A stretch of 33,930 bases of DNA from Bacteroidota bacterium (GCA_028288545.1 JAQBNQ010000293.1:1-33930), one strand, 5' to 3'. Numbered from the stretch's first letter, positions 1 to 22,344 are shown. The notes: generated by a model from the sequence alone, not told the origin. Numbers and translations are program-made.

Positions 1-1839
1 GATGTATTGATAGTTTCATCCGGCGTTATTCCGCTTTCCTCATTGGCGGTTAGTACCATCCAGGCATTTTTACTGCAGGGAGGAAGAGTCTATTTGCAGG
101 GGGAATATCTTACCAGCTATACCACCAATATTGCGTTTCAACAAATTGTGAATGCGAACGGTGGTGCCTTTAGCTGGATTGGAACCACCTCCGGTACTTT
201 AGCGCCTATGAATGTGATGGGAAGTTTAAGCAACACACCTGATACCATTCCACCACTTGGTTATTTTTGGTATGGAACTAATGCCAACCCTGGGTGTAAC
301 TCGCACGTCGAATCTTTTCTTGAATATAGCGGTTCGTATTACGGATTCATTTTTTGTGTACCCACCAATAACTCAAGAATGATCACTACTTCTGACCAGG
401 ATTGGGTGCAATCGGGCACCAGTATTCCTTTAATGCAAAATATGGCTCTTAACCTGGCCAGCCCTACCTACACCTGCGTTGTAACCGGTGGCTTAAATGT
501 AAGCCTTGGTCCCGACACTTCTATTTGCAATGGACAAGCAGTAATACTTGATGGAACGGCTGCCACCGCAACCGGTTATTTATGGAGTACAGGAGAAACA
601 AGTCCTTCCATCACTACCGATACTTCCGGCACTTATTGGGTACAGGTAACTAATGGATTCTGCACTACTTCCGATACAATTGTTATTAGTGCCGGCAGCA
701 CATTTACGATTACCGCCGGTCCGGATACAACAGTTTGTGTTGGAAATGCCTTACAATTGTCGGCATCTACCGTTGGAGGGGCCACTTATAGCTGGACAGG
801 ACCTAATAACTTTAACACACAAAATCCTGTAATACCTGCTACAGCATTTAGCGACAGCGGCACCTATACCGTAATAGCAAACAACAGCGGCTGCAGCAGT
901 AACCCGGTAAATGTTCACGTATCTATTACGCCGGGACCATCGGCGCCAACAGTGTCTAATAACAGCCCGGTTTGCAGTGGAGATTCGTTACTACTTTCAG
1001 CCTCTTTTGTAGCAGGGGCTACCTATACGTGGACAGGGCCCAATAACTTTGGCCAACAAAATCCTTTGATACCAAGCGCGTCATTATCTGATAGCGGCAC
1101 TTACACCGTGGTTTTAACTATTGGCAGTTGCAGCAGCAATCCCGTAACCACACAAGTAATTATAAATCCTGCTCCCGCGCCACCAATTATCGCCGCTTCG
1201 GATACTGTTATTTGCGCCGGTGATTCATCGCAACTTTGTATTGTTGGCACCTTTGCCAGTTATAGTTGGAACAATGGTGCCGGTACCCAGTGCATTTATG
1301 CCCGTATTGCGGGCAATTATTATGCTTCGGTAACGGATGCAAATGGATGCAAAGCAGAGTCTAATCATCTTGCGCTTAATGTTAACCCTGTTCCACCGGT
1401 TTCTATAAGTGTTAATGGCGACACTTTAACCTGCTATACCCCCGGTACTTATCAATGGTATTTAAGTGGCAATCCTATTTCAGGAGCTACTTCCCCTGTT
1501 TATATTGCCCCGCAACAAGGCCTGTACACGATACTTGTAACAAGCAGTAACGGCTGCTCTGCTTTAAGCAGCCCGGTTGCGATAGGCTCTGTGGATATTG
1601 TGCCTGTTAGTGGCAACACAATATTTGAAGTTTACCCCAACCCTACATCCAATCAGTTAACTGTTCAGTTGAGCAGCGATGTACATAGTGTACAAATTGA
1701 AATGTTTGATGCTTTGGGTCAAAGAGTTAGCCAAACCCTAACTGATGGCCCTAAAACAGAGATCAATGTTTCGGAATTTGCAACCGGCATTTACTTTATA
1801 AAGATTGGGGGCAGCGTCCGGAAGTTCGTTAAACAGTAA
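1..1839 (+). CDS. Secreted cell-surface protein, 5'-truncated by the window edge, with tandem Cys-containing Ig-like modules and a T9SS type-A C-terminal sorting domain
   Basis: The frame is open from nt 1, and the first listed residues are not a signal peptide, so the N-terminus lies upstream. About five 65-80 aa modules share C..G....L.A....Y.W.GPNNF..NP.I....DSGTYTV....GCSS; the clearest pair is at nt 712-1164. The last ~73 aa (nt 1618-1836), EVYPNPTSNQLTVQL...GIYFIKIGGSVRKFVKQ, match the classic Por_Secre_tail pattern. Confidence 0.85.
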   Translation, partial: DVLIVSSGVIPLSSLAVSTIQAFLLQGGRVYLQGEYLTSYTTNIAFQQIVNANGGAFSWIGTTSGTLAPMNVMGSLSNTPDTIPPLGYFWYGTNANPGCNSHVESFLEYSGSYYGFIFCVPTNNSRMITTSDQDWVQSGTSIPLMQNMALNLASPTYTCVVTGGLNVSLGPDTSICNGQAVILDGTAATATGYLWSTGETSPSITTDTSGTYWVQVTNGFCTTSDTIVISAGSTFTITAGPDTTVCVGNALQLSASTVGGATYSWTGPNNFNTQNPVIPATAFSDSGTYTVIANNSGCSSNPVNVHVSITPGPSAPTVSNNSPVCSGDSLLLSASFVAGATYTWTGPNNFGQQNPLIPSASLSDSGTYTVVLTIGSCSSNPVTTQVIINPAPAPPIIAASDTVICAGDSSQLCIVGTFASYSWNNGAGTQCIYARIAGNYYASVTDANGCKAESNHLALNVNPVPPVSISVNGDTLTCYTPGTYQWYLSGNPISGATSPVYIAPQQGLYTILVTSSNGCSALSSPVAIGSVDIVPVSGNTIFEVYPNPTSNQLTVQLSSDVHSVQIEMFDALGQRVSQTLTDGPKTEINVSEFATGIYFIKIGGSVRKFVKQ

Positions 1840-1911
1840 CTCTCTTTTGTAACAGCCTGCCATTAGCAGGTATGTATTTTTATTATCTTCGCCCCCTCAA
1901 CATAAAACACT

Positions 1912-3051
1912 ATGAAATTCACGCTATCCGAAGAGCATTTAATGATACGCCAGGCGGCCCGCGATTTTGCACAAAATGAATGCAAGCCCGGTGTTATAGA
2001 ACGCGATACACACATGACCTGGCCCGCAGAGCAGGTAAAGCGTATGGCCGAACTTGGCTTTTTGGGCATGATGGTTTCGCCGGAATATGGTGGAGGGGGA
2101 TTAGATGCACTTAGTTATGTAATAGCGATGGAAGAAATTTCAAAAATTGACGCATCGTGCTCAGTGTTGATGAGCGTTAATAATTCTTTGGTTTGCTGGG
2201 GACTTGAAACCTTTGGCAGTGAAGAACAAAAAAGAAAATACTTAGTGCCTTTGGCTAAAGGAGAAAAAATAGGTGCCTTTTGCCTGAGTGAACCCGAAGC
2301 GGGCAGCGATGCCACCAGCCAAAGTACAACAGCCGTTGATATGGGTGACCATTACATTTTAAACGGCACTAAAAACTGGATAACCAACGGAGGCTGCGCC
2401 AGCACTTACCTTGTAATTGCACAAACACATCCCGAGAAAGGTCACAAAGGAATTAATGTGTTGATCGTTGAAAAAGGAATGCCGGGTTTCCAGGTAGCAA
2501 AGAAGGAAGATAAATTGGGCATCCGTGCCAGCGATACACATTCCCTTTTATTTAATGATGTAAAGGTACCAAAAGAGAACCGGATTGGCGAAGATGGTTT
2601 TGGTTTTAAATTTGCCATGAAGACTTTGGCCGGTGGTCGTATTGGTATCGCAGCCCAGGCTTTAGGCATTGCAGCAGGTGCTTATGAAATGGCCGCTGCT
2701 TACTCTAAACAACGCAGGGCTTTTAAAACAGAGATCATCAATCACCAGGCTGTTGCATTTAAACTAGCCGATATGGCTACCCAGATTGAAGCTGCCCGCT
2801 TATTAGTGTACAAGGCTGCTGTACTTAAAGACCAACATAAAAACTACGATATAGCCAGTGCCACTGCCAAACTTTTTGCCAGCGAAGTAGCTATGCGCAC
2901 TACTGTTGAAGCTGTGCAAATACATGGCGGCTATGGCTACGTAAAGGAATACCACGTAGAGCGACTGATGCGCGATGCTAAGATTACCCAGATATACGAA
3001 GGCACCAGCGAGGTACAGAGGATTGTGATTAGCAGGGGGATATTGGCGTAA
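1912..3051 (+). CDS. Acyl-CoA dehydrogenase (short/medium-chain, butyryl-CoA dehydrogenase-like)
   Basis: 379 aa. Acyl-CoA dehydrogenase signature 1 is present as CLSEPEAGSDATS. Signature 2 and the catalytic Glu region are present as QIHGGYGYVKEYHVERLMRDAKITQIYEGTSEVQ. Confidence 0.95.
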   Translation: MKFTLSEEHLMIRQAARDFAQNECKPGVIERDTHMTWPAEQVKRMAELGFLGMMVSPEYGGGGLDALSYVIAMEEISKIDASCSVLMSVNNSLVCWGLETFGSEEQKRKYLVPLAKGEKIGAFCLSEPEAGSDATSQSTTAVDMGDHYILNGTKNWITNGGCASTYLVIAQTHPEKGHKGINVLIVEKGMPGFQVAKKEDKLGIRASDTHSLLFNDVKVPKENRIGEDGFGFKFAMKTLAGGRIGIAAQALGIAAGAYEMAAAYSKQRRAFKTEIINHQAVAFKLADMATQIEAARLLVYKAAVLKDQHKNYDIASATAKLFASEVAMRTTVEAVQIHGGYGYVKEYHVERLMRDAKITQIYEGTSEVQRIVISRGILA

Positions 3052-3068
3052 ATAAATACAGATAGAAC

Positions 3069-3106
3069 GCCCGCCCGACTGAATGGCTTCAGTCATTCGG
3101 GCGGGC
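3069..3106 (+). terminator. GC-rich imperfect hairpin directly after the acyl-CoA dehydrogenase stop
   Basis: gcccgcccga (3069-3078) pairs with tcgggcgggc (3097-3106), with an inner ctgaa/ttcag pairing. No clean T-run follows, so terminator function is uncertain. Confidence 0.4.
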
Positions 3107-3174
3107 TGATTAATTATGATTGTTATGATAGCTGTTATGATAAATGCATAAAAGTTTTATGAGGTAGTTATAAA

Positions 3175-3216
3175 AGAGATGGTTGACGCTTTTAAGTGTC
3201 AACCATCTCTTTTTTG
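3175..3216. terminator. Strong bidirectional rho-independent terminator between convergent genes
   Basis: A perfect 13-bp stem, agagatggttgac (3175-3187) with gtcaaccatctct (3198-3210), encloses a 10-nt loop. It is followed by tttttt on the plus strand and preceded by aaaa, which is a T-run on the minus strand. It lies between the acyl-CoA dehydrogenase (+) and the 1327-aa gene (-). Confidence 0.75.
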
Positions 3217-3304
3217 GGTTAAATACTTGACGACTAAAATGATATGATCATGTGTCAATCGTGATGAACAGTAACCGACAGCTTCGGCTTAAATATTCAA
3301 CCCT

Positions 3305-6300
3305 CTATCTCGTATTATTGACAAACACCTTTTTAGTGGTTACCTGGTTATTATCTTTTACGCTTACGGTGAAGTAGGCCGCTTCGATATTACCGATCTC
3401 TTTTTGGTAAAGCATATTGCTGTTGAACTTTTCATTGCTGATCTGTTGGCCAAGTACATTGTAGATAGTTACTACAGCATCCACTTTTTGTTGTTGCCGG
3501 AAATCGACAAACACTTTATTCCCGTTACTCCAAATGCCGATTCCTTTGCTACCGGTAATGGTGTTGAAGCCCGAAGTAGATGAATTAACTTCAATAGTTT
3601 GCGAAGCTGTGGCGCTGCAATTGGATAAATTGCTGACCGTTAGTACTACGGTATATGTTCCAGGGGTAGTATAATTATAAGTCACTGTTGGGCCGTTTGC
3701 TGTTTGGCCATTACCCAGGTTCCATTGATAGCTGTTAGCATTGGGTGAAGTGGCCGAAAGCACTACGCTTTGAGATTCCTCAACAACTGTAGCGGAACTG
3801 GTAAATGAAGCTGTAACGGGTTCCGGACCATTTACCTGGAGCAATTGTGTTACCGCGTAGTTATTTGCATCTGTCAAAGTAAGCAGGTAGCTGCCCGCAG
3901 GTTCGCTAAGCGTTAAAGGGCTTGATTGATTCAGCATCCCACTGGCAGTAATATGATTACCATTGTCGGCAAGGGTGTAGTTCCAGTTAGCAATGCCGGG
4001 TTGAGTAATGTTTATTGATCCCTGCGTAGTACAACCTGCGTCGGTAATACTCATCACTGCCGGAGGCGTAAAGTGTAACACAAAGCGATCCCACGCATCT
4101 GCAGAGTCTGCCGTAAAGCTATAATCACCGTTTCGTACATCATGCATTGTGTGAAGTGCTTTATCTTCTAAATAGATATAACTGGTAGCGTCGAAAGTAT
4201 TTACTCCTGTAAAGGCAAAATTATATGTACCGGTTGCTCCTGGCTCGAAGCCCACGGACACGGTGCTTGTGTTCGCCACGTCGTGCAGGATATTTCTTGA
4301 CATCCACTGGCCATCGTTTAAACTATAAAGCGTATGTCTGTTTAAGGTGCCCGGCGATTTATTTGCGTCAAATTGCGGATCAAAGTGTTCAGTAGCAGCA
4401 GCGTTAAAAGCAACTGTAGTTTGATCCAGCAAATGAGTGTTTGTGTTTTCGGCAACGATCTTCAGTTCATTGTCATTTGCACGGAAGAAAGAATGCGGTG
4501 TCCTTACCCGGTCGCTTGCATTAAGTGTATAGTTAGCCGTACCAACCGTAGTTGTTTTATGAACGATGAACGCCTGGAACGGCGCAACAGTAGCATCTAC
4601 ACCGATTATACCGGATTGATACGTACCTGCAAACGGACCGTTTGAATGCCATACCTGTATTTGATTATCAAATCCAGCACTTGGCGTATTAATATCAAGC
4701 GTGGCCAGGTATGGATTAGATACAAGATGCCAGCCTGAAATTATGTTATGACCTTGCAGTGTAACATTGGTCCAGTTACTATTGGTCCTGTTGGCAATAG
4801 TGTAACTGGAGTTGAGATTAGCTGTTCCGCTTAAAGACAATACCCCCGCACCAACTTTAGCCACAGCATATCCTTGTCCATTCATTGCATTACCACTACT
4901 GCTTGTTTCTGCTATCCATTGAGCCGAGGTACATATTGCTCCGTGTGTTTCATCTAAAGCGAGCACCGTGCTGTACGGGGAGTTGGCCGCAACATGTGCC
5001 TCATCGCAATTGGCGGTTGGAATAATATACCCGGCGGTTCCACTGGCCCCAAACTGACTAAAGGAAGGACTATTGACAGGTGAGCCCATGAAGTGCTGGT
5101 TATAGCTGTTGATAGAAGTTCCGCCGCCGTAATAACGCTGTGCATGGATGATTCCGTTGAGAGAACCACTATAGCCGGGACTAAAATTATCTATAATAGC
5201 CACCTGGCTTACTGAAGTGCTGAGGAAGGTTAAAACTCCTCCGTTTGTAGCAAAGGTTCCGCTTTGCAAATCAAGAGAAGTAAAAACATCTACCGATGAA
5301 CCGCTTTGCATTTGTGCCCCGGCAGCATTGTTTAAACGCAATAAATTGAACTTCGTTTTTCCCGAAATAGCCTGTGCATTGCTGCCATTTAAAATCAGTG
5401 CTCCGGTACCGGTAACAATCCCATTAGTGCCGGTGCCTCCCGTCCAGTTGCCGCACACGCTCAGGTCTGCATTTAACGTTACCTGGATACCTGCGTCAAC
5501 TTGCATAGCACCGGTTTGAATATTTGAGTTCAACACAGGATTATGTGGCGTAACCGGAATAATCACATTAGCTGAACAATTGTTGGGCACCAAATTAGTA
5601 TTCCAGTTAATTGGATCATTCCAATTGGTATTGGTTCCGTTCCACACATAGTTGGTACAGTTACCTGCGGTTACATCTATCGCGTTCGAAATAAAATTTG
5701 AAGCGCCGATAGTTACCTGAACCGTATAAGTACCAATTACTAATGCAGTATAGCTGCTATCGGTAGCGCCTGTAATAGCAATACCATTTTTAAACCATTG
5801 ATAAACACAGGCCCCGCCCATGTTTACCCGCATTCTTACAGTTTGGCCGGAACAAATAACGGTTGTATCTGCAGTGGTGATAACCGGTGTTTGAAGATTA
5901 ATAAAGAAGGTATCGGGCTCATAAAGGCTCCAGTTACCAACTTCATCCTTACTGCGTATAAATAAAAAGTGCTGACCGGAGTCGAGACAGGTGGCCGTAG
6001 CAACCGAATTTACAATTACCGAATCATAACCAGCCGTAAAAGTAAATGGGGTGGCCGCTCCTACACCGGGATCAACATTTACAAAATATTCTGCGCCTAC
6101 AATTAAAGGTTTGCGATAGAATCTTCTGCCTTCATATAAACTCCAGCCACCACTATTGTTTTTGGTTCTTACAAAAAGATTATGCCAGCCGGGTTTGAGG
6201 GAGGTTGTAACAACAGACGCGTTTAAAGAAATTGAATCATAAGTTGCGGTAACCGGAATAGAATGACCCGCGCCCGCGCCAGGGTCTGTATCAACAAAGT

Positions 6301-7319: not shown

Positions 7320-8315
7320 TTACCTGATCTTCGATTTAAAATTCACGTTTAAGGTTCCCCCAGATATGATGGTGGGGTTGCTAATATTAAACTCCGTTAA
7401 CTGTGGATTGTGCGGCATTCCATTTTGCTCAAAATCGCCGGTACCGCCATAAGCGCCCAGGTCGGTGCCATCATTGCCCGCACTCTTGGCAGGTGAGCCC
7501 GAAAGCAGGTTAAAGTCATAGCTATAATCAAAATAAGCGCCGCCCGAAGGGAAATTGACAAATTTAGGGTCAACGTTGGTTTGATTTACTCCATTAGGAA
7601 AGTTGTTATTGCCGCACTGGTACGAAATGTTATTACTGTAGGTAGCGCTGGCACCTGTAGGATTTGCGCGGTAAAATATATTGTTATAAATATAGAAGTT
7701 GAAATCATTGCCAAACGCATTTCCGCTGTACAGGAATATATTGTTCATTATATAGTGATAGTTGCTTTGGCAATTACCAAAGTTTGAAATGGGACCGTTA
7801 AAAAGGTTGTTGCGTATTAAATGGCCGGCCTGGCTGCAAGCACCTGAAATATTGTCCCCTGTATACAAAAAAACATTGCCATCAATTAGCCATGCATTGC
7901 ATAAACTCTGATCGATAGAAATCTGGTAAGAAAGCTTACAAAGAACAATTTCAATACTGTCAATATGCTGATTCATAGTATGGATCATGTATAGGTCCAG
8001 CCCAATGATCTTTGTACCCAGCGAGCCGGTATAAAGATTAATATAGTCAACCGTTGATTTAAGTGGTGCCTGCTTTTGAGGGTTATGCCCCGTACCTATT
8101 AACACTAATCTTTTGGAGACCGAAAAGGTATTATAGTTGAACGGAGACCCATGTATCAAAATAGTATCACCATCGTTAGCTGCAGACTGAGCAGCAGCAA
8201 AAGTGGTAAACTGTCCCGGGCTGTTGGTATTATTACTTACTGTGCGGATAGCAGCATAAGTTGATACGGTGGCCAGGAAAATAAGTAAGGCGGAAAATAG
8301 AACTTTCGTTTTCAT
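7320..8315 (-). CDS. Secreted right-handed beta-helix-like protein of unknown function
   Basis: 331 aa with a signal peptide, MKTKVLFSALLIFLATVSTYAA. It has an A..DGDTILIHG motif and a periodic Asn ladder (IRNNLFNG, IMNNIFLY, IYNNIFYR, YSNNISYQ) typical of parallel beta-helix folds. Its stop lies 31 nt before the start of the giant cargo gene, on the same strand. Confidence 0.7.
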   Translation of the reverse strand: MKTKVLFSALLIFLATVSTYAAIRTVSNNTNSPGQFTTFAAAQSAANDGDTILIHGSPFNYNTFSVSKRLVLIGTGHNPQKQAPLKSTVDYINLYTGSLGTKIIGLDLYMIHTMNQHIDSIEIVLCKLSYQISIDQSLCNAWLIDGNVFLYTGDNISGACSQAGHLIRNNLFNGPISNFGNCQSNYHYIMNNIFLYSGNAFGNDFNFYIYNNIFYRANPTGASATYSNNISYQCGNNNFPNGVNQTNVDPKFVNFPSGGAYFDYSYDFNLLSGSPAKSAGNDGTDLGAYGGTGDFEQNGMPHNPQLTEFNISNPTIISGGTLNVNFKSKIR

Positions 8316-8772
8316 CGTTTTGTTTTTTGAACGTTAAGTATTATTAAGTGAGTAATATATGGGAGCATAATATACTTTGATAACCGATATAAGTCAACCC
8401 CTTAAATAAACAGGGTTGAAACGTATTTGGTAAAAAGGCAGATTAGCTCCCAATTTTTAAGTCCGATACAAAACTAGGCTCTTGAAATTTGAAAAACGCG
8501 TTTTAGTAAGAAAGTGGCACTTTTGGGCGCGGTGGGCGGATGCGGTACTTTTTAAAAGACGCCTTATAAGGATGTTGGGATTTGCAGGGGATATTGCGTA
8601 AAGCAGATTGATTTGGGCTTATCCCTTCGAGTCGTGCTATCGTTTCAAGTCCTCATTCGCAAAGCCTTATTGAGGGCTTTATGTTCCATCACTTACACGA
8701 ACATATATGAAGCCTCTTAGTCCTTTTGGCAAGCTTGATTAAATAAAAAAACCATACTTTGCCTTTGAAAAT

Positions 8773-10164
8773 ATGAAAGGTTACCAAGCAGCAAGGAAAG
8801 AACTTGATAGCAGTCTGAGGTTAAAAGCAGAAGCCGAGGATTTACTTAAGCTATTTCTCACGGCACCCAAAACTGAATTTTACTGCAGTGAAATTCAGTT
8901 TTCATTAGACTTAATGAGAAAAAGGGGGGAATTAAAAGACTGGAGTACAGATATTCTAAAGTTAGAGGGTGGTGACGCCTTCTTTTGCCTCTGGTTTGAA
9001 GAATTAAGGGCTGATTTTTCCTCCGGCTTATCCGAAAACTATAATACCCTTACTTCTTTTTTTGATACGGTCGAAAACAATTTTAGAAGGAAAAACCTCC
9101 AAGGTATCTTGCGTCCATTACTCCTTAAATTTCAGCAATGGTTAATGGTAACATTAAATCAAGACCATGGATGTGACTTCTGTGACTATGCTCTGCAGAT
9201 TAAGAGAGATGACCCAGGTAGAAGCGCCTATAACTTCGCTCGAAATTTTGGAAGAGCGTTACAATTTTTGAATATTTCACCGGAGAGGTTATACCTTATA
9301 ATATCACACCTTAAAGAAGAAATCTATACTGGCGGGAATACCGATGATCATGACATAAAAGAAGGCATTAAAGACTTGGCTAAATCACAACCCAAACAAG
9401 GGGAGGAACTTCTTATATATTTTAGCTCAGTTAAAGCCGGTGACTATGAATCCTTAGTATTTGCGGGCCTTATTGAAAATGGAGGGAGCCATTATCTAGA
9501 TAAAAGTTCAACTAAATACCTACAAAACGACCATCGTACCCTCGCCAATGCACTTTCTTGTCTAAGAATCCTTGACAACGATTTAGTTAGAGGCATTTTC
9601 GCAATAATTGACACCCTCAACCTAAGAGAACCAGATGTTGCTAAATATATCCCGCATATTTATCACAATATTATAGAAGCCAATTCTATAACAGATGAAT
9701 TGAAATCAATAGCATTTCAATCACTTATCGGCTTATGGAGTCTTTCAAAAGATATAAAGCCTAATATACTTTATCAATTAAATTTCATTAGAGATTTCAA
9801 GGAACTAAAATGCTCCTTTCTAATTAAGGCTTTTCAGGATCCTGATATTGAGATAAGTTCAATTAACGGAATGTTCGGTATCGCAGAAGTTGCTACTCCT
9901 GATTTTTTCTATCAGTTAATTGAGGTAATCGCTTATAGGATGAAACTGGGATTCGATACTAGCGCTATCGAAGATATCTTGTATGAATTGATTCAACAGG
10001 ATGAGGGGAAGTTCTCAGAAACTTTAATACGCTTGATGATTCATGACAATGGCTTTGTCCGTTATGCAGGTAGCAGGTTATACACGCATCAACATTCGGG
10101 CGTAAAAAGTTCCTTTTTAAGTATGACATTTTGCAACTTACAGAAGTGGATCAACTTAAATTAA
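8773..10164 (+). CDS. Hypothetical cytoplasmic all-helical protein (island ORF A)
   Basis: 463 aa with an ATG start. There is no signal peptide and no TM segment. The sequence is rich in Leu/Glu/Lys/Ile helical stretches, and I recognise no catalytic motif. Codon usage is AT-rich, unlike the flanks. Confidence 0.75.
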   Translation: MKGYQAARKELDSSLRLKAEAEDLLKLFLTAPKTEFYCSEIQFSLDLMRKRGELKDWSTDILKLEGGDAFFCLWFEELRADFSSGLSENYNTLTSFFDTVENNFRRKNLQGILRPLLLKFQQWLMVTLNQDHGCDFCDYALQIKRDDPGRSAYNFARNFGRALQFLNISPERLYLIISHLKEEIYTGGNTDDHDIKEGIKDLAKSQPKQGEELLIYFSSVKAGDYESLVFAGLIENGGSHYLDKSSTKYLQNDHRTLANALSCLRILDNDLVRGIFAIIDTLNLREPDVAKYIPHIYHNIIEANSITDELKSIAFQSLIGLWSLSKDIKPNILYQLNFIRDFKELKCSFLIKAFQDPDIEISSINGMFGIAEVATPDFFYQLIEVIAYRMKLGFDTSAIEDILYELIQQDEGKFSETLIRLMIHDNGFVRYAGSRLYTHQHSGVKSSFLSMTFCNLQKWINLN

Positions 10165-10748
10165 TTATAGCTGCGCTTACCGAAATGAATCAGCCGGCTG
10201 ATACTTTGCCAAACATTTTGAAATTATTAGATTCAAATTCAGACAAGGTAGTTGCTTATTTGATCCAGAGACTAAAAGAAATGATTGAATCGTTCTTTGA
10301 TAGCGTTTATAAGGAAATGGAAGCAGCCTATGTGCACAAAATCTTCAAAAATAACACCGCGATTAAAAAAGTTAAATCGTACCACGAAGAATTTATTAAA
10401 CATATCGAGCAGAAAGAAGCACTAAATGAATTGAATGCTTGGCAAAATGAGCACACCTTGGTGAGGTACTATACGGAACTTTATCAAAGAAAACAAAATC
10501 GTGTTATTGGGGATGCAATGAATAAAGGTTCCTCCTTTTTGCAACATAGCAATTCCGTAACCTTAGCTAAAAGTGGGGGCTGGAAAATGGAAGGTCGGGA
10601 TGAAATAACACAGCTAAACAACATTAGTAGTTCTTCACTTTTTCCAAGAACTTATTTTATAAAACCGGAATACTTTAATCAAAGTGTTACAAGTAAGTAC
10701 TTAGTTAATTGGGCGCAAATTTTCAAATGGGAGCAAATTCAATTATAG
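10131..10748 (+). CDS. Hypothetical helical protein (island ORF B), possibly the frameshifted C-terminal part of ORF A
   Basis: The ORF-track start at 10131 is TTG and overlaps ORF A by 34 nt. The first in-frame ATG is at 10185 (MNQPADT...), 20 nt after the ORF A stop. The frame is open back to 10074. No motif recognised. Confidence 0.55.
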   Translation: MQLTEVDQLKLIIAALTEMNQPADTLPNILKLLDSNSDKVVAYLIQRLKEMIESFFDSVYKEMEAAYVHKIFKNNTAIKKVKSYHEEFIKHIEQKEALNELNAWQNEHTLVRYYTELYQRKQNRVIGDAMNKGSSFLQHSNSVTLAKSGGWKMEGRDEITQLNNISSSSLFPRTYFIKPEYFNQSVTSKYLVNWAQIFKWEQIQL

Positions 10749-12442
10749 TCAAAGAGTATCTTGAAAGTTTAAAAGAAGATAAGGAACTTGATTATTTGTT
10801 CCCCCTTCTCCTTTCCTTAATGGGCTTTGAGGTTATTACCACCGCAAAAGAATCGAAGGGGCAATCTCAATACGGGAAAGATGTAGTTGCCATCGGGAAA
10901 GATGAAAATGGAAAGACATGGAGGTATTATTTTCAAATAAAGGCAGGAGACGCAAAAGATATTAATGACAGAACATTTAATGATGAAAATGGGATAAGAT
11001 CATCCCTACTTCAAGCTAAGGATACTCTTTTAATTGATTCCACTCGCGTTGACTTTTCCTCTTTACCAATAAAGATAATCCTAGTACACCCCGGAATTCT
11101 AAAAGAAAACTTCCGTCCAGTATTTGAAGGATTTATTAAACAAAATTTCAAAGAGGATGAATTTGAACATTGGAACATATACAAATTGATCTCATTATTC
11201 GAGGAGTATTTATTCAATGAATGTCTTTTAATTGATAACGAGTCCTACAAACTCTTTAAAAAGTTACTGGTTTTATTGGACGCACCCGGGAGCGATTTTA
11301 AAGATATCCATTTACTTCTTGATCATCTTATAAAAAATCATGCCGCTCTTTCCGGTAGAAAATTTCAGAAGTTCTTTGCAAGTTTCCATTTGATCGCAGC
11401 AGTAATATTACAGTTTTCAAAAGAAGCTAATAATTTACACGCTGCACGAGAATGTTTAACCGTATTGTTATTAAAAGTCTGGGCATGGATATTAAGATCG
11501 AAATTAGAGACAGATAAATTTGCGTTAGGAGAGTTTCGAAAACTGCTCAAAATACACTACGATTGCCTTGATCTTTATTTTCACAAGACCTTTTCTATAG
11601 CGGTGTCAAAAAATGGTCTCTTCGCTGAACGTGCTGGTATGTATGAAACCATTGGCTATCCCGTTCGGAGTTTCGAATACCTCAGTTACCTCCTTTATTA
11701 TTTTCACGCAATGCCATATTCATTTGACTTCGAAAGCGCTGTTCCTGGCTTGGATATACCAAAACTTAGAAACACTCAAAAAGAAGCACTAATTTCTCTA
11801 ATATCTTCTAATGATGGTTGTTCAAGACCGCTGATTGACTACCATTCCATTCCAATAGTTATTTTATTTCTATTCTTTGCAGAGGAAGAAATACTAGAAA
11901 CGCATTTAGCGTTTATTGCAAACTACTTAATAAATGTTCTAGATAATATTCTTCTAGTCAAATCAGTAGCTAAAAGGTATCCCATGCTAGGAACCAATCT
12001 AAAAATCCTTGCTGAATATAGCGTCGAAGAAAAAAAGCCAAATGAATATCTTGACAAAACCAGCATTCTTATTCCTACCGTATTTGAACTTATAAGCGTT
12101 ATAAACCACGAGTATGTATATGGTCGTTATAAAAACAAGTTTGATAAAGAGCTAAGTTTACAGATTCCACACCCACTTAAAGGAATGGATTTTGAACAAA
12201 AGATATTTGACGGCTATGCAGATAACGCGTACTATGTTGAAGCATTTGTAGAAGGTTTCCCTGCAACATTAAAGGAGTATCGCGATAAGCTTATAAACTC
12301 AAAAGCAGATCAAATCGCATTTAGAACAGATGCAGCGGGTTTCCCCTTTCTACGTTTATTGGCACATCTTTATTATAAAAACGAGCTTACTCCTTTTGAA
12401 TGGCGGAAATGGTTGAAAAATTCAGGTAGTGCGAATACTTAA
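10727..12442 (+). CDS. Mrr-like PD-(D/E)xK nuclease domain fused to a ~420-aa helical domain of unknown function (island ORF C)
   Basis: The N-terminus aligns by eye to the Mrr_cat restriction-endonuclease core. The elements are helix ELDYLFPLLLSLMGFEV, strand YGKDVVAIG (Asp codon 10880-10882), strand WRYYFQIKAG (Q-x-K, Lys codon 10940-10942), then IKIILVHPG. I prefer the ATG at 10727 over the TTG at 10709 used by the ORF track. The gene overlaps ORF B by 22 nt. Confidence 0.8.
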   Translation: MGANSIIVKEYLESLKEDKELDYLFPLLLSLMGFEVITTAKESKGQSQYGKDVVAIGKDENGKTWRYYFQIKAGDAKDINDRTFNDENGIRSSLLQAKDTLLIDSTRVDFSSLPIKIILVHPGILKENFRPVFEGFIKQNFKEDEFEHWNIYKLISLFEEYLFNECLLIDNESYKLFKKLLVLLDAPGSDFKDIHLLLDHLIKNHAALSGRKFQKFFASFHLIAAVILQFSKEANNLHAARECLTVLLLKVWAWILRSKLETDKFALGEFRKLLKIHYDCLDLYFHKTFSIAVSKNGLFAERAGMYETIGYPVRSFEYLSYLLYYFHAMPYSFDFESAVPGLDIPKLRNTQKEALISLISSNDGCSRPLIDYHSIPIVILFLFFAEEEILETHLAFIANYLINVLDNILLVKSVAKRYPMLGTNLKILAEYSVEEKKPNEYLDKTSILIPTVFELISVINHEYVYGRYKNKFDKELSLQIPHPLKGMDFEQKIFDGYADNAYYVEAFVEGFPATLKEYRDKLINSKADQIAFRTDAAGFPFLRLLAHLYYKNELTPFEWRKWLKNSGSANT

Positions 12443-12538
12443 TTCATATACTCTAACTATGTCCTCCAACGTAAGAACAGGCTAAAATTTGATCCACTTC
12501 CTTATTCCATTGATTGTATCAATAGAACGAACCTGACC

Positions 12539-12952
12539 ATGCCAAACTTCACACACAACTTTTGCGACCCTTTAAAACCCGATGTAATTGAGCTTGGACC
12601 CATAGCGCCTGACAAAATAGTTGGGTTGTTCAATTCCTTTCCTTTTGATGAGCATTTAAAGAAAATGAATGCTGCGAAAAAAGAAGAAATTTGTTATTCC
12701 CCTTCGCTGGCCTTTGAAAATGTACAGACAAAGAGTGGGATATGTATCTCTGTTTTGGGAGAAACTGCGGTAACAGAATATATGATTTTTTACAAGCGCC
12801 CGCGCAATAAAAAATCTTTCTTCGGCCTTGTTGAAAAACTTGTCCCCGATTATTGCACTGACATTACGGTTGAAGAAAAAGAAAAGGCAGTTGCAGCACT
12901 GGAAGCTTTGATAAAAGGTGATACCGATTATTTGGAGAACGCCATTAAGTAA
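12539..12952 (+). CDS. Small hypothetical protein with an acidic C-terminal helix (island ORF D)
   Basis: 137 aa with an ATG start, on the same strand and with the same AT-rich composition as ORFs A-C, 96 nt downstream of ORF C. No signal peptide and no recognised motif. The C-terminus reads EEKEKAVAALEALIKGDTDYLENAIK. Confidence 0.65.
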   Translation: MPNFTHNFCDPLKPDVIELGPIAPDKIVGLFNSFPFDEHLKKMNAAKKEEICYSPSLAFENVQTKSGICISVLGETAVTEYMIFYKRPRNKKSFFGLVEKLVPDYCTDITVEEKEKAVAALEALIKGDTDYLENAIK

Positions 12953-13150: not shown

Positions 13151-13178
13151 TTGGTCAAAACAACACAACAGGCATAAA

Positions 13179-13213
13179 AAAACCTCCGCCTAATTTGATC
13201 AGATGGAGGTTTT
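13179..13213 (-). terminator. Rho-independent terminator of the superoxide dismutase gene
   Basis: aaaacctcc (13179-13187) pairs perfectly with ggaggtttt (13205-13213) around a 17-nt loop. On the minus strand the stem runs straight into a T-tract (the plus-strand A-run 13176-13182, part of which lies inside the stem). It lies 31 nt past the sod stop. Confidence 0.7.
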
Positions 13214-13243
13214 ATATCCCTTTTGCAAGATTAAAAGGAGGAC

Positions 13244-18096: not shown

Positions 18097-21000
18097 TTAG
18101 TAGTTCGATGTATCAGCTGGTCTAACGGTTCCAAACCATTTCAAAGTTCTTTGGCCAAGGCCTGGTGCTTCAATATGGAAAAGATAAATGCCGCTGGCAA
18201 TTGGAATTCCCTTATCGTTTTTCATATCCCAGTCAACGGTGCTCTCAACATTTACAGATTGTATATCGGTACCATCACTGATCTCCACCTTTTTATTGGT
18301 AGCAGGGTCCACACCGATAGAACGGTTAAGTACGCGGATGATAGTTCCATCCAATGAATAAATGGTAATAGTACAATTGTTAGGCAGGTTGGTTACCTTA
18401 ACCGTGCTGGTGTTTGCATCCGGCTCGTAAGCAGAATATGCCAGGTATGGATTGGGTACAATACGTATCAGGTCAAGTGCACTCTTTGCAACAGTAACGT
18501 TGTTTTCGGTTGCGCCCAGGCCTTTGGTACTAAACATATAACGTGGCAGCGAATCAACACCCGGTGATGGATCAACAGCTAACATGCGGGTGTATGGTTT
18601 ATCAACTCTAAGCCTAACGGTTACTTCAGCAGGTGGAATATACGCGACATTACTCGCATCGGTGCCAAAGGTATAGCCAGGGGTCAGAACAGGGATACAG
18701 GTCCACATCAGGTCACGATAAACAGGATATTGAGATTTCGCAAGGTGCTCCTGCACAGTAGTAATACTATCATAACCGGATAGCAAAACATGTTGCGCAG
18801 AATCGCCACCATCATATTTAGTATCCCAAACGTAAATGAAGTGTTTTCCACCAAAGTAAGGTATCTGCGGTATTGTAGCCGAAGGATAAATAACGGGGTC
18901 GTAAACATCCTGGGTAGGATTCCATAACATATCCGCGCCGTTCTGATCCGGTACTTCTGAAGCTTCACCGAAACCGATATTTAAACGCTCACCGGTTTCA
19001 ACATTAACTGCATAACCGGGGAACCATGAACGGCCAATATCACTAGGGTCTGTTACCAGGTAATCCTTAGTTACCGGATTATTCCAGTTTTTGGAGTACG
19101 ACATTCTTATCTGCCCCTTCAACGCTCCGTCGCCGGCTACCGGGTTACTGTTGGAACTGCTTCGTGGGAAAATATCATTACCAAGCGTAGCACGTTCGTC
19201 CTCACCCGTTTCAAAAACCACGCAGCGCGTCCATTTGCTCTTATCAGGAGTAATTACAATATCAACACTGGCAACTTTATCAAGCGTATTTTGGGGTGGA
19301 GCATATAAAAACGAATTCTTGCCGCCGTATTGTAACCACTTAAATCCCGGACCGTAAACATAAGGAGGCGCAGGCGCCACGGCATCCCTGTGTGAGTAAT
19401 TGGCAGTTAAGCAATACGGAGCCCATGTTCCATTCAATATATTATCGAAAATATGATTGGGGTCATCAAACAGGCCATGAGGGTAAGTTGGCGGGTTACC
19501 CGGGCCAACCCAATACCAGTTGTCGTCAAATACAGTTGCAAAAGCCCTGCTGCTTGACTGGCTACCCGGATCATAATCCTGTATACCTGAACGGATCCAG
19601 TTGGTAACAGTATTGGTTCCCTGATCCTGCACAAACGAAAGCCATGGTTGGGTAGGATTTTGATAGGTAATACTTGACTTGGTAACATCCGTTCCATAAA
19701 TAAACCGCGGTGGCGAGTTTGGATCAATGTAACCAGCTGGCAAAGTGTCAACCGGTGCCGGGGTACCTAGTTTTATAGAGAATCCGTAATCATTCCTGTT
19801 ACTGTCAACTATTTGTTGCTGATATGGTCTGTCAAGGTGCCTTTCGCTGGCTATTACCACGTTGTTGGTAACATCAGTTAACTTCCAGTAAGTTCTGCTA
19901 TCCAAAGGTAAATACGCTGTGTCAGTTGCACCGCTATCTACCAAAAACTGCAGCACAAAATCAGCTTCCTTTAAGTTAACCGGATCGGTGATCTGGAAAC
20001 CAATAGGATCAAGACCTTTCACATAAGTCAAAGTATCTTTAAAAGCTGTAAAGCCCGAATTGAGAATATCATTGATAGTTTCGGGCGTAAGGTCAAGATT
20101 ATTACCACCGTTACCCTGTCCTTCAATACGCACTACATTCACGCCATCGCCCCATTGAGAATGCAGGATGGTTCCAACATTCCGAGGATCCGGAATATGC
20201 GGCACCGCATCATACACTTTAAAGTTGTTACGGCCTTGCAAATACTCAATCAACTGGCCTTTTGCCTGTGGATTTTCCTGGTCGTAATGTTGAAAGTCAT
20301 TATAAGCATAAGCCACGGCCGTGTAGTAATAGGTCATGTGGTTAATCAAGCGGTTATCCTTACCGGTTGCAAAAAGATCGGTGGTTACCTTAAACGAATT
20401 AGTGATTCCGGCATCGGCACCGTCCACTTCTAATGTTGGTATGAACAGGTTAAGCGTAGGATCTTTAATAAAGTTGATCAGTTTGGTTATTCCGTTTTTA
20501 ACATCGCACTGGGCAACTAATAGTGCCTTTGTAGGATCTTCCAAATCACTCGCCGAAACGTTAGGACTTTTTAGCTGGTACAATTTGTACCCTTCAAAAG
20601 TATAGGTTGAATCGCCATGGCCTGCAAGTATTTCATGTACTGATTCTTCCGTCTTTCCATCCACCTGTTTGTAGCCTTCACCAATGTTGTTGGATATAGG
20701 AGAAATATTAAGCAGGTTAATGATCAGTTGATTATCCAATTCGCGAATTTGTAAAGTTGGAGCATCCGGACCATCCAATAATTTAAAACAAGTATTGAAC
20801 AAGGCCTGGGCTTCATCATCGGCAGGACCAATGGTGGTATTAAAGTCAGGACATAATCCCACGCCGTTTGTACCTGTTGGACGAACAAAAACCACCCCTA
20901 CTGTAACAAACTGCGAAACACCCGTTGTTAGTGTAAATGGTCCTGAAGACTGAACAAATCTTCTGTCATCGGCAGGTAACATGCTTGAAACGCTGCACTC

Positions 21001-22344
21001 ACTCCAGGCAGCACCATCGCTTGGGTTACCAGGGAAAATGTACTTAGTGGGAGTTGTACCACCGTAGCCGGTATTGCCCGCTGTAAACGGTGTACCATCG
21101 TTCCAGAAACCAGTTTGGTAGTTCCTGTACTGCGGAGCCGTTAAGGGGTCACTTTTTGCAAAAGCAGCTCCGTTAGTAAAATATACAAATGATGACATGC
21201 CTAACTGAGCACCACTGTCGCTCAAAGGTCCCTCAAAAAAGTCAACACCCACTATCGGTAATTGAGCCAGGTAACCGTGTTCGTTTACACAATCGTTATC
21301 AGGTGATGAACCATTATAACACACACCAAGACTTCTTGAAGTATCGCAACCCACGCGGTCGTTAAATGCACAACCCAGATCCGGATCCACCCATTGCGAA
21401 ATATAGGTTTGAAATAATTTATTAGCCGATTTGTTGACGATCTCATAATTATAGAAAGTCATGTTATTAATCTCATCAGTTGTTTGAAATGCAAACGCCA
21501 GAGAGTTTACCTGTACCCCAATACTTTGTCCGTTTGATTCGGTATGGATATTACCTACATCATTAAAAACCCAGAAAACCATTTGATCGGCATAAGCCTG
21601 CGATTCACCGTTGCGGCATGGAATAACGGGATAGTCACCTTTCAAAGGATCGTATACACCATCGTGGTTCACATCTTTAAAAGGAGCCAGGTTATCAGTA
21701 ACATTATAAGTTTGGCCAATAAGCGTTGGGTCGCCGGCAAGATATTGATTGCCTTTAGCCGGCCATGCCAATACATCTTTAGGGATATCAGCCAAAGTTA
21801 CGCCGGTTGGATTTTGCAAATAAGCAGACTGTGCTTTTGCAATGTCAGCACCATAAACGTTAAAGTGACGATCGTATTCACTACAGGTTGAGGGGCTAAT
21901 GTTTCCACTGGCATCCAATGGTCCTGGCCAGTAATCGTTACCCGAAGCGCGGTAACGCTGTGCTGCACATTTCAGGTTACCACCCGCATCAAGACCGGAT
22001 ATCCATATTGCACCGGCAAAAATTGCACATAAAGGATGCGTTCCATCACCTTTAGGCACCTCATACTTCGGTTCGCTGAAATTCCACCATGTGTCACCAC
22101 CGGCAAGCAAACGGGCACGTACGTTATTAATATCTATATCAAACTGGGCCGTTGACGCAACACAATTTCCCGCATCAGTTTTAAATGAAATGTGCGAATT
22201 GGTTCGGGTAGGCTTATTGACATCCTCCTTTGCGTTGGCCACAACACTTGCCAGTAAAAGGCACAGGCAAAGCGTAATGTTTAATGAAATCGTTTTCATG
22301 GTTTTCATTTTAATTCCTTTAGTATTTTCTCTTAGGTTCTTCAC
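18097..22344 (-). CDS. Large secreted protein of unknown function with a C-terminal T9SS-CTD-like / FlgD-Ig-like beta-sandwich
   Basis: The ORF is 1415 aa. The signal peptide MKTISLNITLCLCLLLASVVANA suggests a start at ~22299-22308. The tail (nt 18100-18474) reads IVPNPY...CTITIYSLDGTIIRVL...DWDMKNDKGIPIASGIYLFHIEAPG...LKWFGTV. I saw no C25-peptidase (PorU-type) motifs. Confidence 0.8.
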   Translation of the reverse strand: MKNLRENTKGIKMKTMKTISLNITLCLCLLLASVVANAKEDVNKPTRTNSHISFKTDAGNCVASTAQFDIDINNVRARLLAGGDTWWNFSEPKYEVPKGDGTHPLCAIFAGAIWISGLDAGGNLKCAAQRYRASGNDYWPGPLDASGNISPSTCSEYDRHFNVYGADIAKAQSAYLQNPTGVTLADIPKDVLAWPAKGNQYLAGDPTLIGQTYNVTDNLAPFKDVNHDGVYDPLKGDYPVIPCRNGESQAYADQMVFWVFNDVGNIHTESNGQSIGVQVNSLAFAFQTTDEINNMTFYNYEIVNKSANKLFQTYISQWVDPDLGCAFNDRVGCDTSRSLGVCYNGSSPDNDCVNEHGYLAQLPIVGVDFFEGPLSDSGAQLGMSSFVYFTNGAAFAKSDPLTAPQYRNYQTGFWNDGTPFTAGNTGYGGTTPTKYIFPGNPSDGAAWSECSVSSMLPADDRRFVQSSGPFTLTTGVSQFVTVGVVFVRPTGTNGVGLCPDFNTTIGPADDEAQALFNTCFKLLDGPDAPTLQIRELDNQLIINLLNISPISNNIGEGYKQVDGKTEESVHEILAGHGDSTYTFEGYKLYQLKSPNVSASDLEDPTKALLVAQCDVKNGITKLINFIKDPTLNLFIPTLEVDGADAGITNSFKVTTDLFATGKDNRLINHMTYYYTAVAYAYNDFQHYDQENPQAKGQLIEYLQGRNNFKVYDAVPHIPDPRNVGTILHSQWGDGVNVVRIEGQGNGGNNLDLTPETINDILNSGFTAFKDTLTYVKGLDPIGFQITDPVNLKEADFVLQFLVDSGATDTAYLPLDSRTYWKLTDVTNNVVIASERHLDRPYQQQIVDSNRNDYGFSIKLGTPAPVDTLPAGYIDPNSPPRFIYGTDVTKSSITYQNPTQPWLSFVQDQGTNTVTNWIRSGIQDYDPGSQSSSRAFATVFDDNWYWVGPGNPPTYPHGLFDDPNHIFDNILNGTWAPYCLTANYSHRDAVAPAPPYVYGPGFKWLQYGGKNSFLYAPPQNTLDKVASVDIVITPDKSKWTRCVVFETGEDERATLGNDIFPRSSSNSNPVAGDGALKGQIRMSYSKNWNNPVTKDYLVTDPSDIGRSWFPGYAVNVETGERLNIGFGEASEVPDQNGADMLWNPTQDVYDPVIYPSATIPQIPYFGGKHFIYVWDTKYDGGDSAQHVLLSGYDSITTVQEHLAKSQYPVYRDLMWTCIPVLTPGYTFGTDASNVAYIPPAEVTVRLRVDKPYTRMLAVDPSPGVDSLPRYMFSTKGLGATENNVTVAKSALDLIRIVPNPYLAYSAYEPDANTSTVKVTNLPNNCTITIYSLDGTIIRVLNRSIGVDPATNKKVEISDGTDIQSVNVESTVDWDMKNDKGIPIASGIYLFHIEAPGLGQRTLKWFGTVRPADTSNY

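Follow-up and report, generated by a model that had tools for sequence, protein, structure and literature searches.

A predicted solitary Olokun anti-phage cassette in a Bacteroidota genome, with oloA split by a one-nucleotide deletion

Four adjacent reading frames of low G+C content

A compact block of four open reading frames (ORFs) in a Bacteroidota metagenome-assembled genome (MAG) raises the question of whether it encodes a new defence system, a known one or genes that merely lie side by side. An earlier note on this DNA had favoured the first of these, an uncharacterised system with no named match. We analysed the block in the context of the window, by which we mean the whole stretch of 33,930 nucleotides (GCA_028288545.1, JAQBNQ010000293.1:1-33930).

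All four ORFs lie on the + strand: ORF A at 8773-10164 (stop codon TAA at 10162-10164), ORF B at 10131-10748 (start codon TTG, with an in-frame ATG at 10185), ORF C at 10709-12442 or, from a later start codon, 10727-12442, and ORF D at 12539-12952. ORFs A and B overlap by 34 nt (or are separated by 20 nt if B starts at the ATG at 10185), B and C overlap by 22 nt when C starts at the ATG at 10727, and 96 nt separate C from D. These values reproduce those given previously for the strand, coordinates, overlaps and gaps. The G+C content is 36.0% in 8773-12952, as compared to 42.9% in the remainder of the window, and the block is the window's lowest-G+C 4.2-kb stretch, approximately 5.7 SD below non-overlapping windows. 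The low G+C content of the block, which had been estimated from a few lines of sequence, is thus real, whereas the accompanying estimate of ~47% for the flanks was too high.

To the left, the block is flanked by proteins with T9SS C-terminal sorting domains (Por_Secre_tail) and PKD proteins, and to the right by SodA, a TadA-like deaminase, RuvC, HIT and GreA, in agreement with the earlier description of T9SS cargo on one side and sodA-tadA on the other. No 19-residue window of the block's ORFs reaches transmembrane-like hydropathy (maximum Kyte-Doolittle value 1.52), as had been claimed, and no conserved Walker A motif was found in these ORFs. Scans of ORFs A-D against Pfam, NCBIfam and PHROGs gave only noise-level matches, and scans of the window for RNA genes with Rfam and tRNA models were empty.

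ORFs A to C correspond to the Olokun system

The identification of ORFs A to C comes from PADLOC profiles, namely PDLC03925 for OloA and PDLC03926 for OloB. ORF C matches the OloB profile over positions 2-555 of 556 (E 1.5e-115, 385 bits). ORF A matches positions 17-377 of the 596 positions of the OloA profile (E 1.7e-12), and ORF B matches positions 400-584 of the same profile (E 1.4e-20). When A and B are joined by repairing the reading frame, the match is unbroken from position 17 to 584 (E 1.9e-36); the intact OloA of a relative, L001, scores 1.1e-30. Judged by these matches, ORFs A-C are a copy of the two-gene Olokun anti-phage system (oloA-oloB), which has already been described and is not a new system. 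The idea of an uncharacterised system is thus wrong: the direct matches place A-C in named families, an outcome that the earlier note had listed as refuting its proposal. The more general suggestion of a defence locus was right, as a horizontally acquired anti-phage locus in which a PD-(D/E)xK nuclease (Mrr-like, QxK) is accompanied by a sizeable helical protein of non-enzymatic nature, and in which an ATPase is missing, agrees with the assignment to Olokun.

Olokun was named as a defence system in Millman et al. 2022, Cell Host & Microbe, according to the citation of that work in PMC10121019; the name is absent from the 2022 preprint version of Millman et al. The biochemistry of a Pseudomonas homologue, PfOlokun, is presented in a preprint (bioRxiv 10.1101/2025.07.10.664194). 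There, OloA, an "adaptin-like" helical protein, and OloB form a 2:2 complex in which the paired PD-(D/E)xK domains lie side by side. The system degrades phage DNA selectively and spares host DNA, and mutants of the nuclease site lose the OloA-OloB complex. By homology, this mode of action would extend to the Olokun of the window.

The nuclease subunit, OloB

The oloB gene, encoding the Olokun nuclease subunit, occupies 10727-12442 on the + strand (571 aa from the ATG at 10727, or 577 aa from the TTG at 10709). We found 357 homologues of OloB, and these start at the equivalent of M7. Some of the distant relatives are carried on conjugative plasmids, and a search for OloB in phage genomes gave no match.

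An N-terminal PD-(D/E)xK nuclease domain is predicted at 10733-11227 (+), based on invariant residues, AF2 models and Foldseek comparisons. Its catalytic-motif codons are E48 (10850-10852), D58 (10880-10882), Q76 (10934-10936) and K78 (10940-10942), all on the + strand. D58 and K78, which had been singled out earlier as motif positions, are invariant in 35 homologues, and E48 is conserved. At position 76, 31 of the 35 sequences have E, whereas the other four, i.e., the window's protein and its three closest homologues, have Q. A Q in place of the acidic residue at this position of the motif is known in Mrr/MspJI-type enzymes. In the AF2 models (pLDDT 85.6 and 83.2), D58 opens a strand and the QxK closes the next strand, and E48, D58 and Q76-x-K78 are placed on an alpha-beta-beta-beta-alpha-beta core. 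Foldseek comparisons of the nuclease domain with the PDB rank restriction-endonuclease-fold proteins at the top, all of them weak and individually non-significant matches; MspJI (4f0p) is first (E 6e-3, TM 0.41), and HamA (8zue) is also among them.

The remainder of the protein is an all-helical domain at 11237-12406 (+), delimited by AF2 secondary structure (residues 177-566). It has no significant fold match in the PDB and no significant sequence match. The whole OloB model retrieves only generic helical repeats from the PDB with Foldseek (E>0.1), and a sequence-profile search of OloB against the PDB gave no match. By analogy with the published complex model (bioRxiv 10.1101/2025.07.10.664194), the helical domain is likely the docking surface for OloA.

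A one-nucleotide deletion in oloA

The partner gene, oloA, encodes the non-enzymatic helical subunit of Olokun and extends over 8773-10748 (+), but it is disrupted by a frameshift; once repaired, it would encode 658 aa. Analysis of frames by tblastn and three-frame translation indicates that ORF A (8773-10164, +) consists of 439 native N-terminal OloA residues followed by a 24-residue out-of-frame tail. According to tblastn and PADLOC, the 218 C-terminal residues of OloA are encoded at 10092-10748 (+) in the -1 frame, in which ORF B lies, and are 56-61% identical to intact OloA over its residues ~444-661. The -1 frame is open from 10074, and its earliest possible starts are the TTG at 10131 and the ATG at 10185. 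A match of ORF B to TOG/HEAT is weak (E 0.024) and is the single hint that the window's OloA may be an alpha-solenoid of the "adaptin-like" kind.

The frameshift can be located at 10090-10091 (+) by a DNA alignment with three relatives (L001, L004 and L006) and a protein alignment of 24 OloA homologues. At this point the window has the dinucleotide "CA" where the relatives have a Leu or Ile codon (cta, tta or ata), so that one base is missing. The homology changes frame exactly at this 1-nt gap and continues in frame B from 10092 onward. The site corresponds to residue 440 of repaired OloA, just past the motif HDNGFVRxAGSRxY and inside the C-terminal module, which is the most conserved module of OloA and is kept even in short OloA variants among the 24 aligned homologues.

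The gene is intact elsewhere. The closest relatives have single OloA ORFs of 659-662 aa, and a single-frame OloA, usually an ORF of ~640-680 aa overlapping oloB, lies directly upstream of OloB in 61 of 77 related loci, i.e., in all of those in which OloA is detectable. An oloA in two frames occurs only in the window, as against none of these 61 other loci. With few exceptions among the 77 loci, the two genes either overlap by a few to ~46 nt or are separated by a gap of a few nt; the overlap in the window is that of B and C. From these comparisons, A and B are one gene that has been split by a 1-nt deletion.

The deletion would leave a truncated OloA (ORF A) and an orphaned C-terminal piece (ORF B), and oloB would lose its coupling to the reading frame upstream, with which it overlaps in almost every relative. 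The frameshift would be expected to abolish or reduce Olokun function. Since oloA is broken in its conserved module and oloB is uncoupled, the locus most likely represents an Olokun that has recently been inactivated or crippled. Neither the halves of oloA nor oloB have additional stops or excess divergence as compared to relatives, which suggests that any inactivation is recent or that the two pieces may still work.

It is important to consider that the frameshift might be an error of sequencing or consensus building in the metagenome assembly, in which case Olokun would be intact and functional. Indel errors do occur in MAG consensus sequences, oloA and oloB carry no other lesions, and OloA-N, OloA-C and OloB of the window diverge from relatives in proportions like those seen when intact relatives are compared with one another. 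However, the sequence at the site, "catcaacat", is not a homopolymer, and the same deletion is carried by an independently built Logan contig (L078, run SRR13312996) that matches as an exact substring, although the Logan assembly probably derives from the same reads as the MAG. We consider such an error unlikely.

A real deletion might also be tolerated, if ORF A and a re-initiated ORF B still assembled with OloB as a natural "split OloA"; we regard this as quite improbable. If it were true, the conserved C-terminal module would be the core that binds OloB, with the variable N-terminal region acting as a sensor that can be separated from it.

Production of OloA in two pieces as the normal state of the system, whether by programmed -1 frameshifting or as separate A and B subunits that assemble with OloB, is highly improbable. 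Frame B is indeed -1 relative to frame A and leaves a 91-nt window of overlap, and Olokun-like loci of gut Bacteroidales use a short OloA (see below). Yet no X XXY YYZ heptamer is present in 10074-10164, and the switch of frame at the 1-nt gap fits a deletion and not a downstream slip site. Moreover, the break lies inside a conserved module and not at a domain boundary, and no other locus is split here. The lack of a slippery heptamer and the single-frame relatives led us to reject programmed frameshifting.

Limits and mobility of the cassette

DNA homology with the closest relatives is confined to 8746-12418, and only oloAB is common to them. The cassettes of relatives are found in varied neighbourhoods, some beside HNH, methylase or Eco57I genes. 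Judged from these comparisons, oloAB is a solitary, horizontally acquired cassette among housekeeping genes of the Bacteroidota MAG.

The upstream leader of oloA (8746-8772, +) contains a putative promoter and is conserved in the closest relative, since the blastn alignment to L001 starts at 8746. TACTTTG at 8755-8761 falls a single base short of TAnnTTTG, the consensus of the -7 promoter element in Bacteroidota, and L001 has the identical pattern "aaaaaacYatactttg...gaaaatATG" upstream of oloA. This leader is a putative promoter that might move together with the cassette. Matches resembling sigma-70 promoters and terminators occur at the level expected from shuffled sequence, and neither kind of match is informative for Bacteroidota.

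Direct or inverted repeats flanking the cassette are limited to short, chance-level matches, and there is no integrase or transposase in the whole window. A search for a relative's "empty site" that would mark the ends of the insertion found none, and no close relative of the MAG turned up.

ORF D is a neighbouring gene

ORF D belongs to an uncharacterised family of ~135 aa, for which an exhaustive search found 162 representative relatives. A k-mer-prefiltered search had retrieved only the query, but the exhaustive search rules out that ORF D is an orphan. In the four contexts examined, its relatives have non-defence neighbours such as sigma factors, dioxygenases and RF-1, and Olokun is absent from their surroundings. 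The earlier expectation that A, B and D would accompany homologues of ORF C was borne out for OloA (A and B together) in the 61 loci mentioned above, but for ORF D in 0 of 77, and ORF D is a singleton among ORFs downstream of OloB. With no link to A-C in any related locus, ORF D is, on the evidence of homology and gene context, an unrelated neighbour gene and not a component of Olokun.

The common strand, tight spacing and low G+C content could suggest that A, B, C and D jointly form a novel four-gene conflict system, but we give this virtually no credence: A, B and C fall into two Olokun families with A and B forming one frameshifted oloA, no third gene is found repeatedly after OloB in different lineages, and ORF D lies beyond the DNA shared with relatives' cassettes and has an intermediate G+C content (39.1%).

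Taken as a whole, the block is very probably a solitary, horizontally acquired Olokun cassette whose oloA was broken by a deletion, likely inactivating or crippling it, with the unrelated ORF D alongside.

Short OloA partners and significance

In gut Bacteroidales, OloB is found with an OloA-like partner of ~325 aa that consists only of the C-terminal module and is unrecognised by the PADLOC OloA model. Because these proteins keep only this module, the N-terminal region appears to be dispensable in some lineages, which hints at the same modularity as would a split OloA. Such loci could modestly improve the detection of Olokun and help to map the essential part of OloA.

For annotation, three "hypothetical proteins" of the MAG would be relabelled as OloA (disrupted) and OloB; one of these three, at oloAB, is JWO06_1875. 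The locus would also be a further case of a defence cassette that landed on its own between core genes and was later disabled by a point indel. Beyond annotation, its relevance is small, as the system is already known.

Comparison with known nuclease systems

OloB resembles type IV enzymes of the Mrr/MspJI type in its restriction-endonuclease fold, its D-(x)n-Q-x-K signature and the weak match to MspJI as the best PDB hit of its N-domain model. However, no Pfam family, including Mrr_cat (PF04471), matches ORF C even at E<=1, and neither an SRA nor a winged-helix domain for the reading of modifications was found in it. In contrast to Mrr-type enzymes, the nuclease domain is N-terminal, with no modified-DNA-binding domain before it, and it is fused to a helical domain of ~400 aa and paired with OloA.

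Hachiman HamAB, AbpAB and Gabija-like "nuclease-NTPase" systems share with Olokun a nuclease effector that is complexed with a larger regulatory partner, and Olokun is grouped with these two-component nuclease systems in the preprint on PfOlokun (bioRxiv 10.1101/2025.07.10.664194). The difference is that the OloA partner lacks Walker A/B and helicase motifs, and Olokun is not one of the systems for which the same preprint names a P-loop partner. The missing ATPase, previously considered an anomaly, is normal in Olokun.

As compared to described Olokun, the window's locus differs in its split oloA, in the D...QxK motif of its clade of four, instead of D...ExK, and in its solitary position outside any defence island, in a Bacteroidota MAG. 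Additionally, the preprint text places the helical domain of OloB at the N-terminus, whereas the nuclease motif is N-terminal in the window's OloB. In its other features the locus is like Olokun: oloA immediately precedes oloB on the same strand and the two genes overlap at their ends, OloA is large and helical and lacks NTPase motifs, neither a methyltransferase nor a helicase is present, and ORF C combines a full-length match to the OloB profile with a PD-(D/E)xK motif.

Assignment of the block to Olokun

Four ORFs lie on the forward strand at 8773-12952: ORF A (8773-10164, 463 aa), ORF B (10131-10748, 205 aa from a TTG, with an in-frame ATG at 10185), ORF C (10709-12442, 577 aa from the TTG at 10709; the ATG at 10727 is M7) and ORF D (12539-12952, 137 aa). 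An earlier note had read them as an uncharacterised four-gene defence block. Their positions and spacing are as it described: A and B overlap by 34 nt (or are 20 nt apart if B starts at its ATG), B and C overlap by 22 nt, and 96 nt separate C from D. As also claimed, no transmembrane-like segment occurs in any of the four proteins; they likewise lack a conserved Walker A motif.

Profile scans of ORFs A-D with Pfam, NCBIfam and PHROGs returned nothing. Among PADLOC-DB profiles, ORF C matches the whole of OloB, the Olokun nuclease (positions 2-555 of 556, E 1.5e-115). ORF A and ORF B match successive segments of OloA, its helical partner (17-377 of 596, E 1.7e-12, and 400-584 of 596, E 1.4e-20), so the pair represents adjoining pieces of a single family model. 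Olokun, a two-gene anti-phage system whose name comes from Millman et al. 2022 as cited in PMC10121019, is called routinely by PADLOC, e.g., in Flavobacterium (PMC12781566). Since ORFs A-C fall in already named families, the system is not uncharacterised.

A frame break in oloA

Each of the three closest OloB homologues (71-75% identity) has a single 659-662-aa ORF directly upstream, overlapping oloB. When these OloA proteins are compared with the window by tblastn, homology follows the frame of ORF A to about 10089 and then the -1 frame from 10092. In the DNA alignment, relatives show 'cat cta aca' or an equivalent opposite 'cat ca aca ttc ggg' in the window, which is thus one base short in a Leu/Ile codon (10090/10091). 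The repaired OloA, with this base restored, has 658 aa and matches the OloA profile in a single stretch (17-584, E 1.9e-36), as strongly as intact relatives do. OloA is detectable in 61 of 77 loci fetched through OloB; it occupies one frame in all 61 and is split in the window only. Judged from the sequence, ORFs A and B are one gene, oloA, broken by a 1-nt deletion. The break falls at residue 440 of the repaired protein, within the most conserved C-terminal module and right after the motif HDNGFVRxAGSRxY.

It is possible that the missing base reflects a read-level error. An assembler artefact is unlikely, because the same deletion is present in a separately assembled Logan contig (run SRR13312996), which matches the window exactly over its whole length (8487-10781). 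We rejected programmed frameshifting of oloA, since the overlap (10074-10164) has no canonical slippery heptamer and the homology changes frame exactly at the 1-nt gap. Our preferred reading is still a deletion in oloA. The window's identity to relatives is 42-43% in OloA before the break, 57-61% after it and 71-74% in OloB, which scales as among intact relatives; the lesion, if real, would be recent.

OloB nuclease

The proposed PD-(D/E)xK head on ORF C is upheld. An alignment of 35 OloB homologues shows no variation at D58 and K78 and almost none at E48. At position 76, 31 of the 35 have E, whereas the window and the three sequences closest to it have Q, and D...QxK is therefore a clade signature; it also occurs in Mrr/MspJI-type enzymes. 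In AF2 models of the full protein (pLDDT 85.6) and of the N-domain alone (pLDDT 83.2), D58 starts one strand and QxK ends the next. The N-domain core is alpha-beta-beta-beta-alpha-beta, followed by an all-helical domain of ~400 residues, for which structure and sequence-profile searches of the PDB gave no significant match. The top Foldseek matches of the N-domain in the PDB are restriction-endonuclease-fold proteins, all weak, the best being MspJI (E 6e-3, probability 0.96), with AF1548, EndoMS, EcoO109I, Can2, HamA, EcoT38I, MUS81 and the Rpb5 N-domain also matched.

In NCBI, ORF C is annotated as JWO06_1875 (577 aa), from the TTG at 10709. That annotation probably begins 6 codons too early, because nearly all homologues in our alignment start at the position of M7 (ATG 10727).

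ORF D

A word-indexed search with ORF D recovered the query alone and missed all relatives. With an exhaustive phmmer search, 162 representative relatives (clusters) were recovered; most have ~135 aa, and identity reaches 45%. ORF D therefore belongs to a real, uncharacterised family, which has SFCDP..P..IELG, YSPSLE.EN and FYIFY.RPK in its consensus and no model in Pfam, PADLOC or PHROG. Four contexts of the family that we examined are non-defence and all without Olokun; neighbours there include an ECF sigma factor, cupins, a dioxygenase, RF-1 and a SIS-domain protein.

An ORF D homologue occurs in 0 of the 77 Olokun loci; no third gene is found repeatedly after oloB in different lineages, and DNA homology to the closest relatives' cassettes covers 8746-12418 only, i.e., oloAB and a leader of ~27 nt that holds a shared TACTTTG. 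ORF D is therefore a neighbour of Olokun and not a component. The block is thus not a four-gene one, A and B being two frames of a single oloA.

Composition, flanks and mobility

The computed G+C content of 8773-12952 is 36.0%, in line with an earlier spot estimate of ~35%; the ~47% estimated for the flanks was too high, the remaining window having 42.9%. This is the lowest-G+C 4.2-kb stretch of the window, about 5.7 SD under non-overlapping windows. The flanks are as described: T9SS-type cargo (Por_Secre_tail and PKD proteins) on the left, and SodA, a CMP/dCMP-type deaminase, RuvC, HIT and GreA on the right. The remaining genes are housekeeping, and no integrase, transposase, tRNA or second defence gene was found elsewhere in the window.

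Two ORFs lack a Pfam match at the thresholds applied: one of 331 aa adjoining the T9SS cargo genes (7320-8315, reverse strand) and one of 1415 aa adjoining a PorV-like gene (18097-22344, reverse strand). At 13175-13215, just downstream of sodA, a G+C-rich hairpin precedes a T-run on the reverse strand (cctccatctgatcaaattaggcggagg + ttttttt), bounding the AT-rich intergenic spacer beyond ORF D on its right side. It is probably the sodA terminator; it was not among the matches of a terminator scan of the window.

In the closest relatives the cassette lies in unrelated neighbourhoods, some defence-island-like (one has HNH, DUF2779, Eco57I/N6-methylase and DNA methylase genes; L001). Conjugative plasmids of Klebsiella and Enterobacter carry distant OloB relatives (~24% identity); none were found in phages. 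The unrelated neighbourhoods, plasmid relatives and low G+C support horizontal acquisition of the cassette; no insertion scars were found flanking it.

Variant loci were also observed. Mainly in gut/rumen Bacteroidales (Prevotella, Muribaculaceae, Alistipes, Odoribacter), full-length OloB follows a much shorter partner, mostly ~320-330 aa, that ends at the OloB start, e.g., L056:5034-6005 (also L053, L055, L058-L060, L062, L063, L065, L066, L068-L070 and L072). Sampled short partners align to the conserved C-terminal module of OloA. The PADLOC OloA model did not match the one tested (L056), and loci of this kind may thus escape detection as Olokun. In a Bacteroidota MAG (L073:1706-7107), ~2.3 kb with other ORFs separates a full-length OloA ORF (1706-3709) from a shortened OloB matching only residues ~212-567; an insertion or rearrangement appears to have disrupted this Olokun locus.

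Comparison with characterised Olokun

Pseudomonas Olokun purifies as a ~278-kDa 2:2 OloA-OloB complex, in which the 'adaptin-like' OloA binds the OloB helical domain; a model of the complex sets the two PD-(D/E)xK domains next to each other. The complex breaks down DNA of T7, SECphi17 and SPO1 and introduces nicks into plasmids, but leaves E. coli genomic DNA intact; mutating the nuclease site abolishes the complex, and OloA is not among the P-loop partners named (bioRxiv 10.1101/2025.07.10.664194). By homology, the ancestral form of the window's cassette would have worked similarly, with OloA as a helical sensor or scaffold that gates OloB, a DNA endonuclease acting as a dimer. The OloA now encoded would lack its conserved C-terminal third. 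In related loci the oloB start normally overlaps oloA, which suggests translational coupling; here, ribosomes on ORF A would stop 560 nt before the oloB start. The window's Olokun is most likely inactivated or weakened.

The block is a known system and not a new one, and any PADLOC or DefenseFinder run would label it Olokun; the disrupting 1-nt deletion, the QxK variant and the solitary location are minor oddities of this locus.
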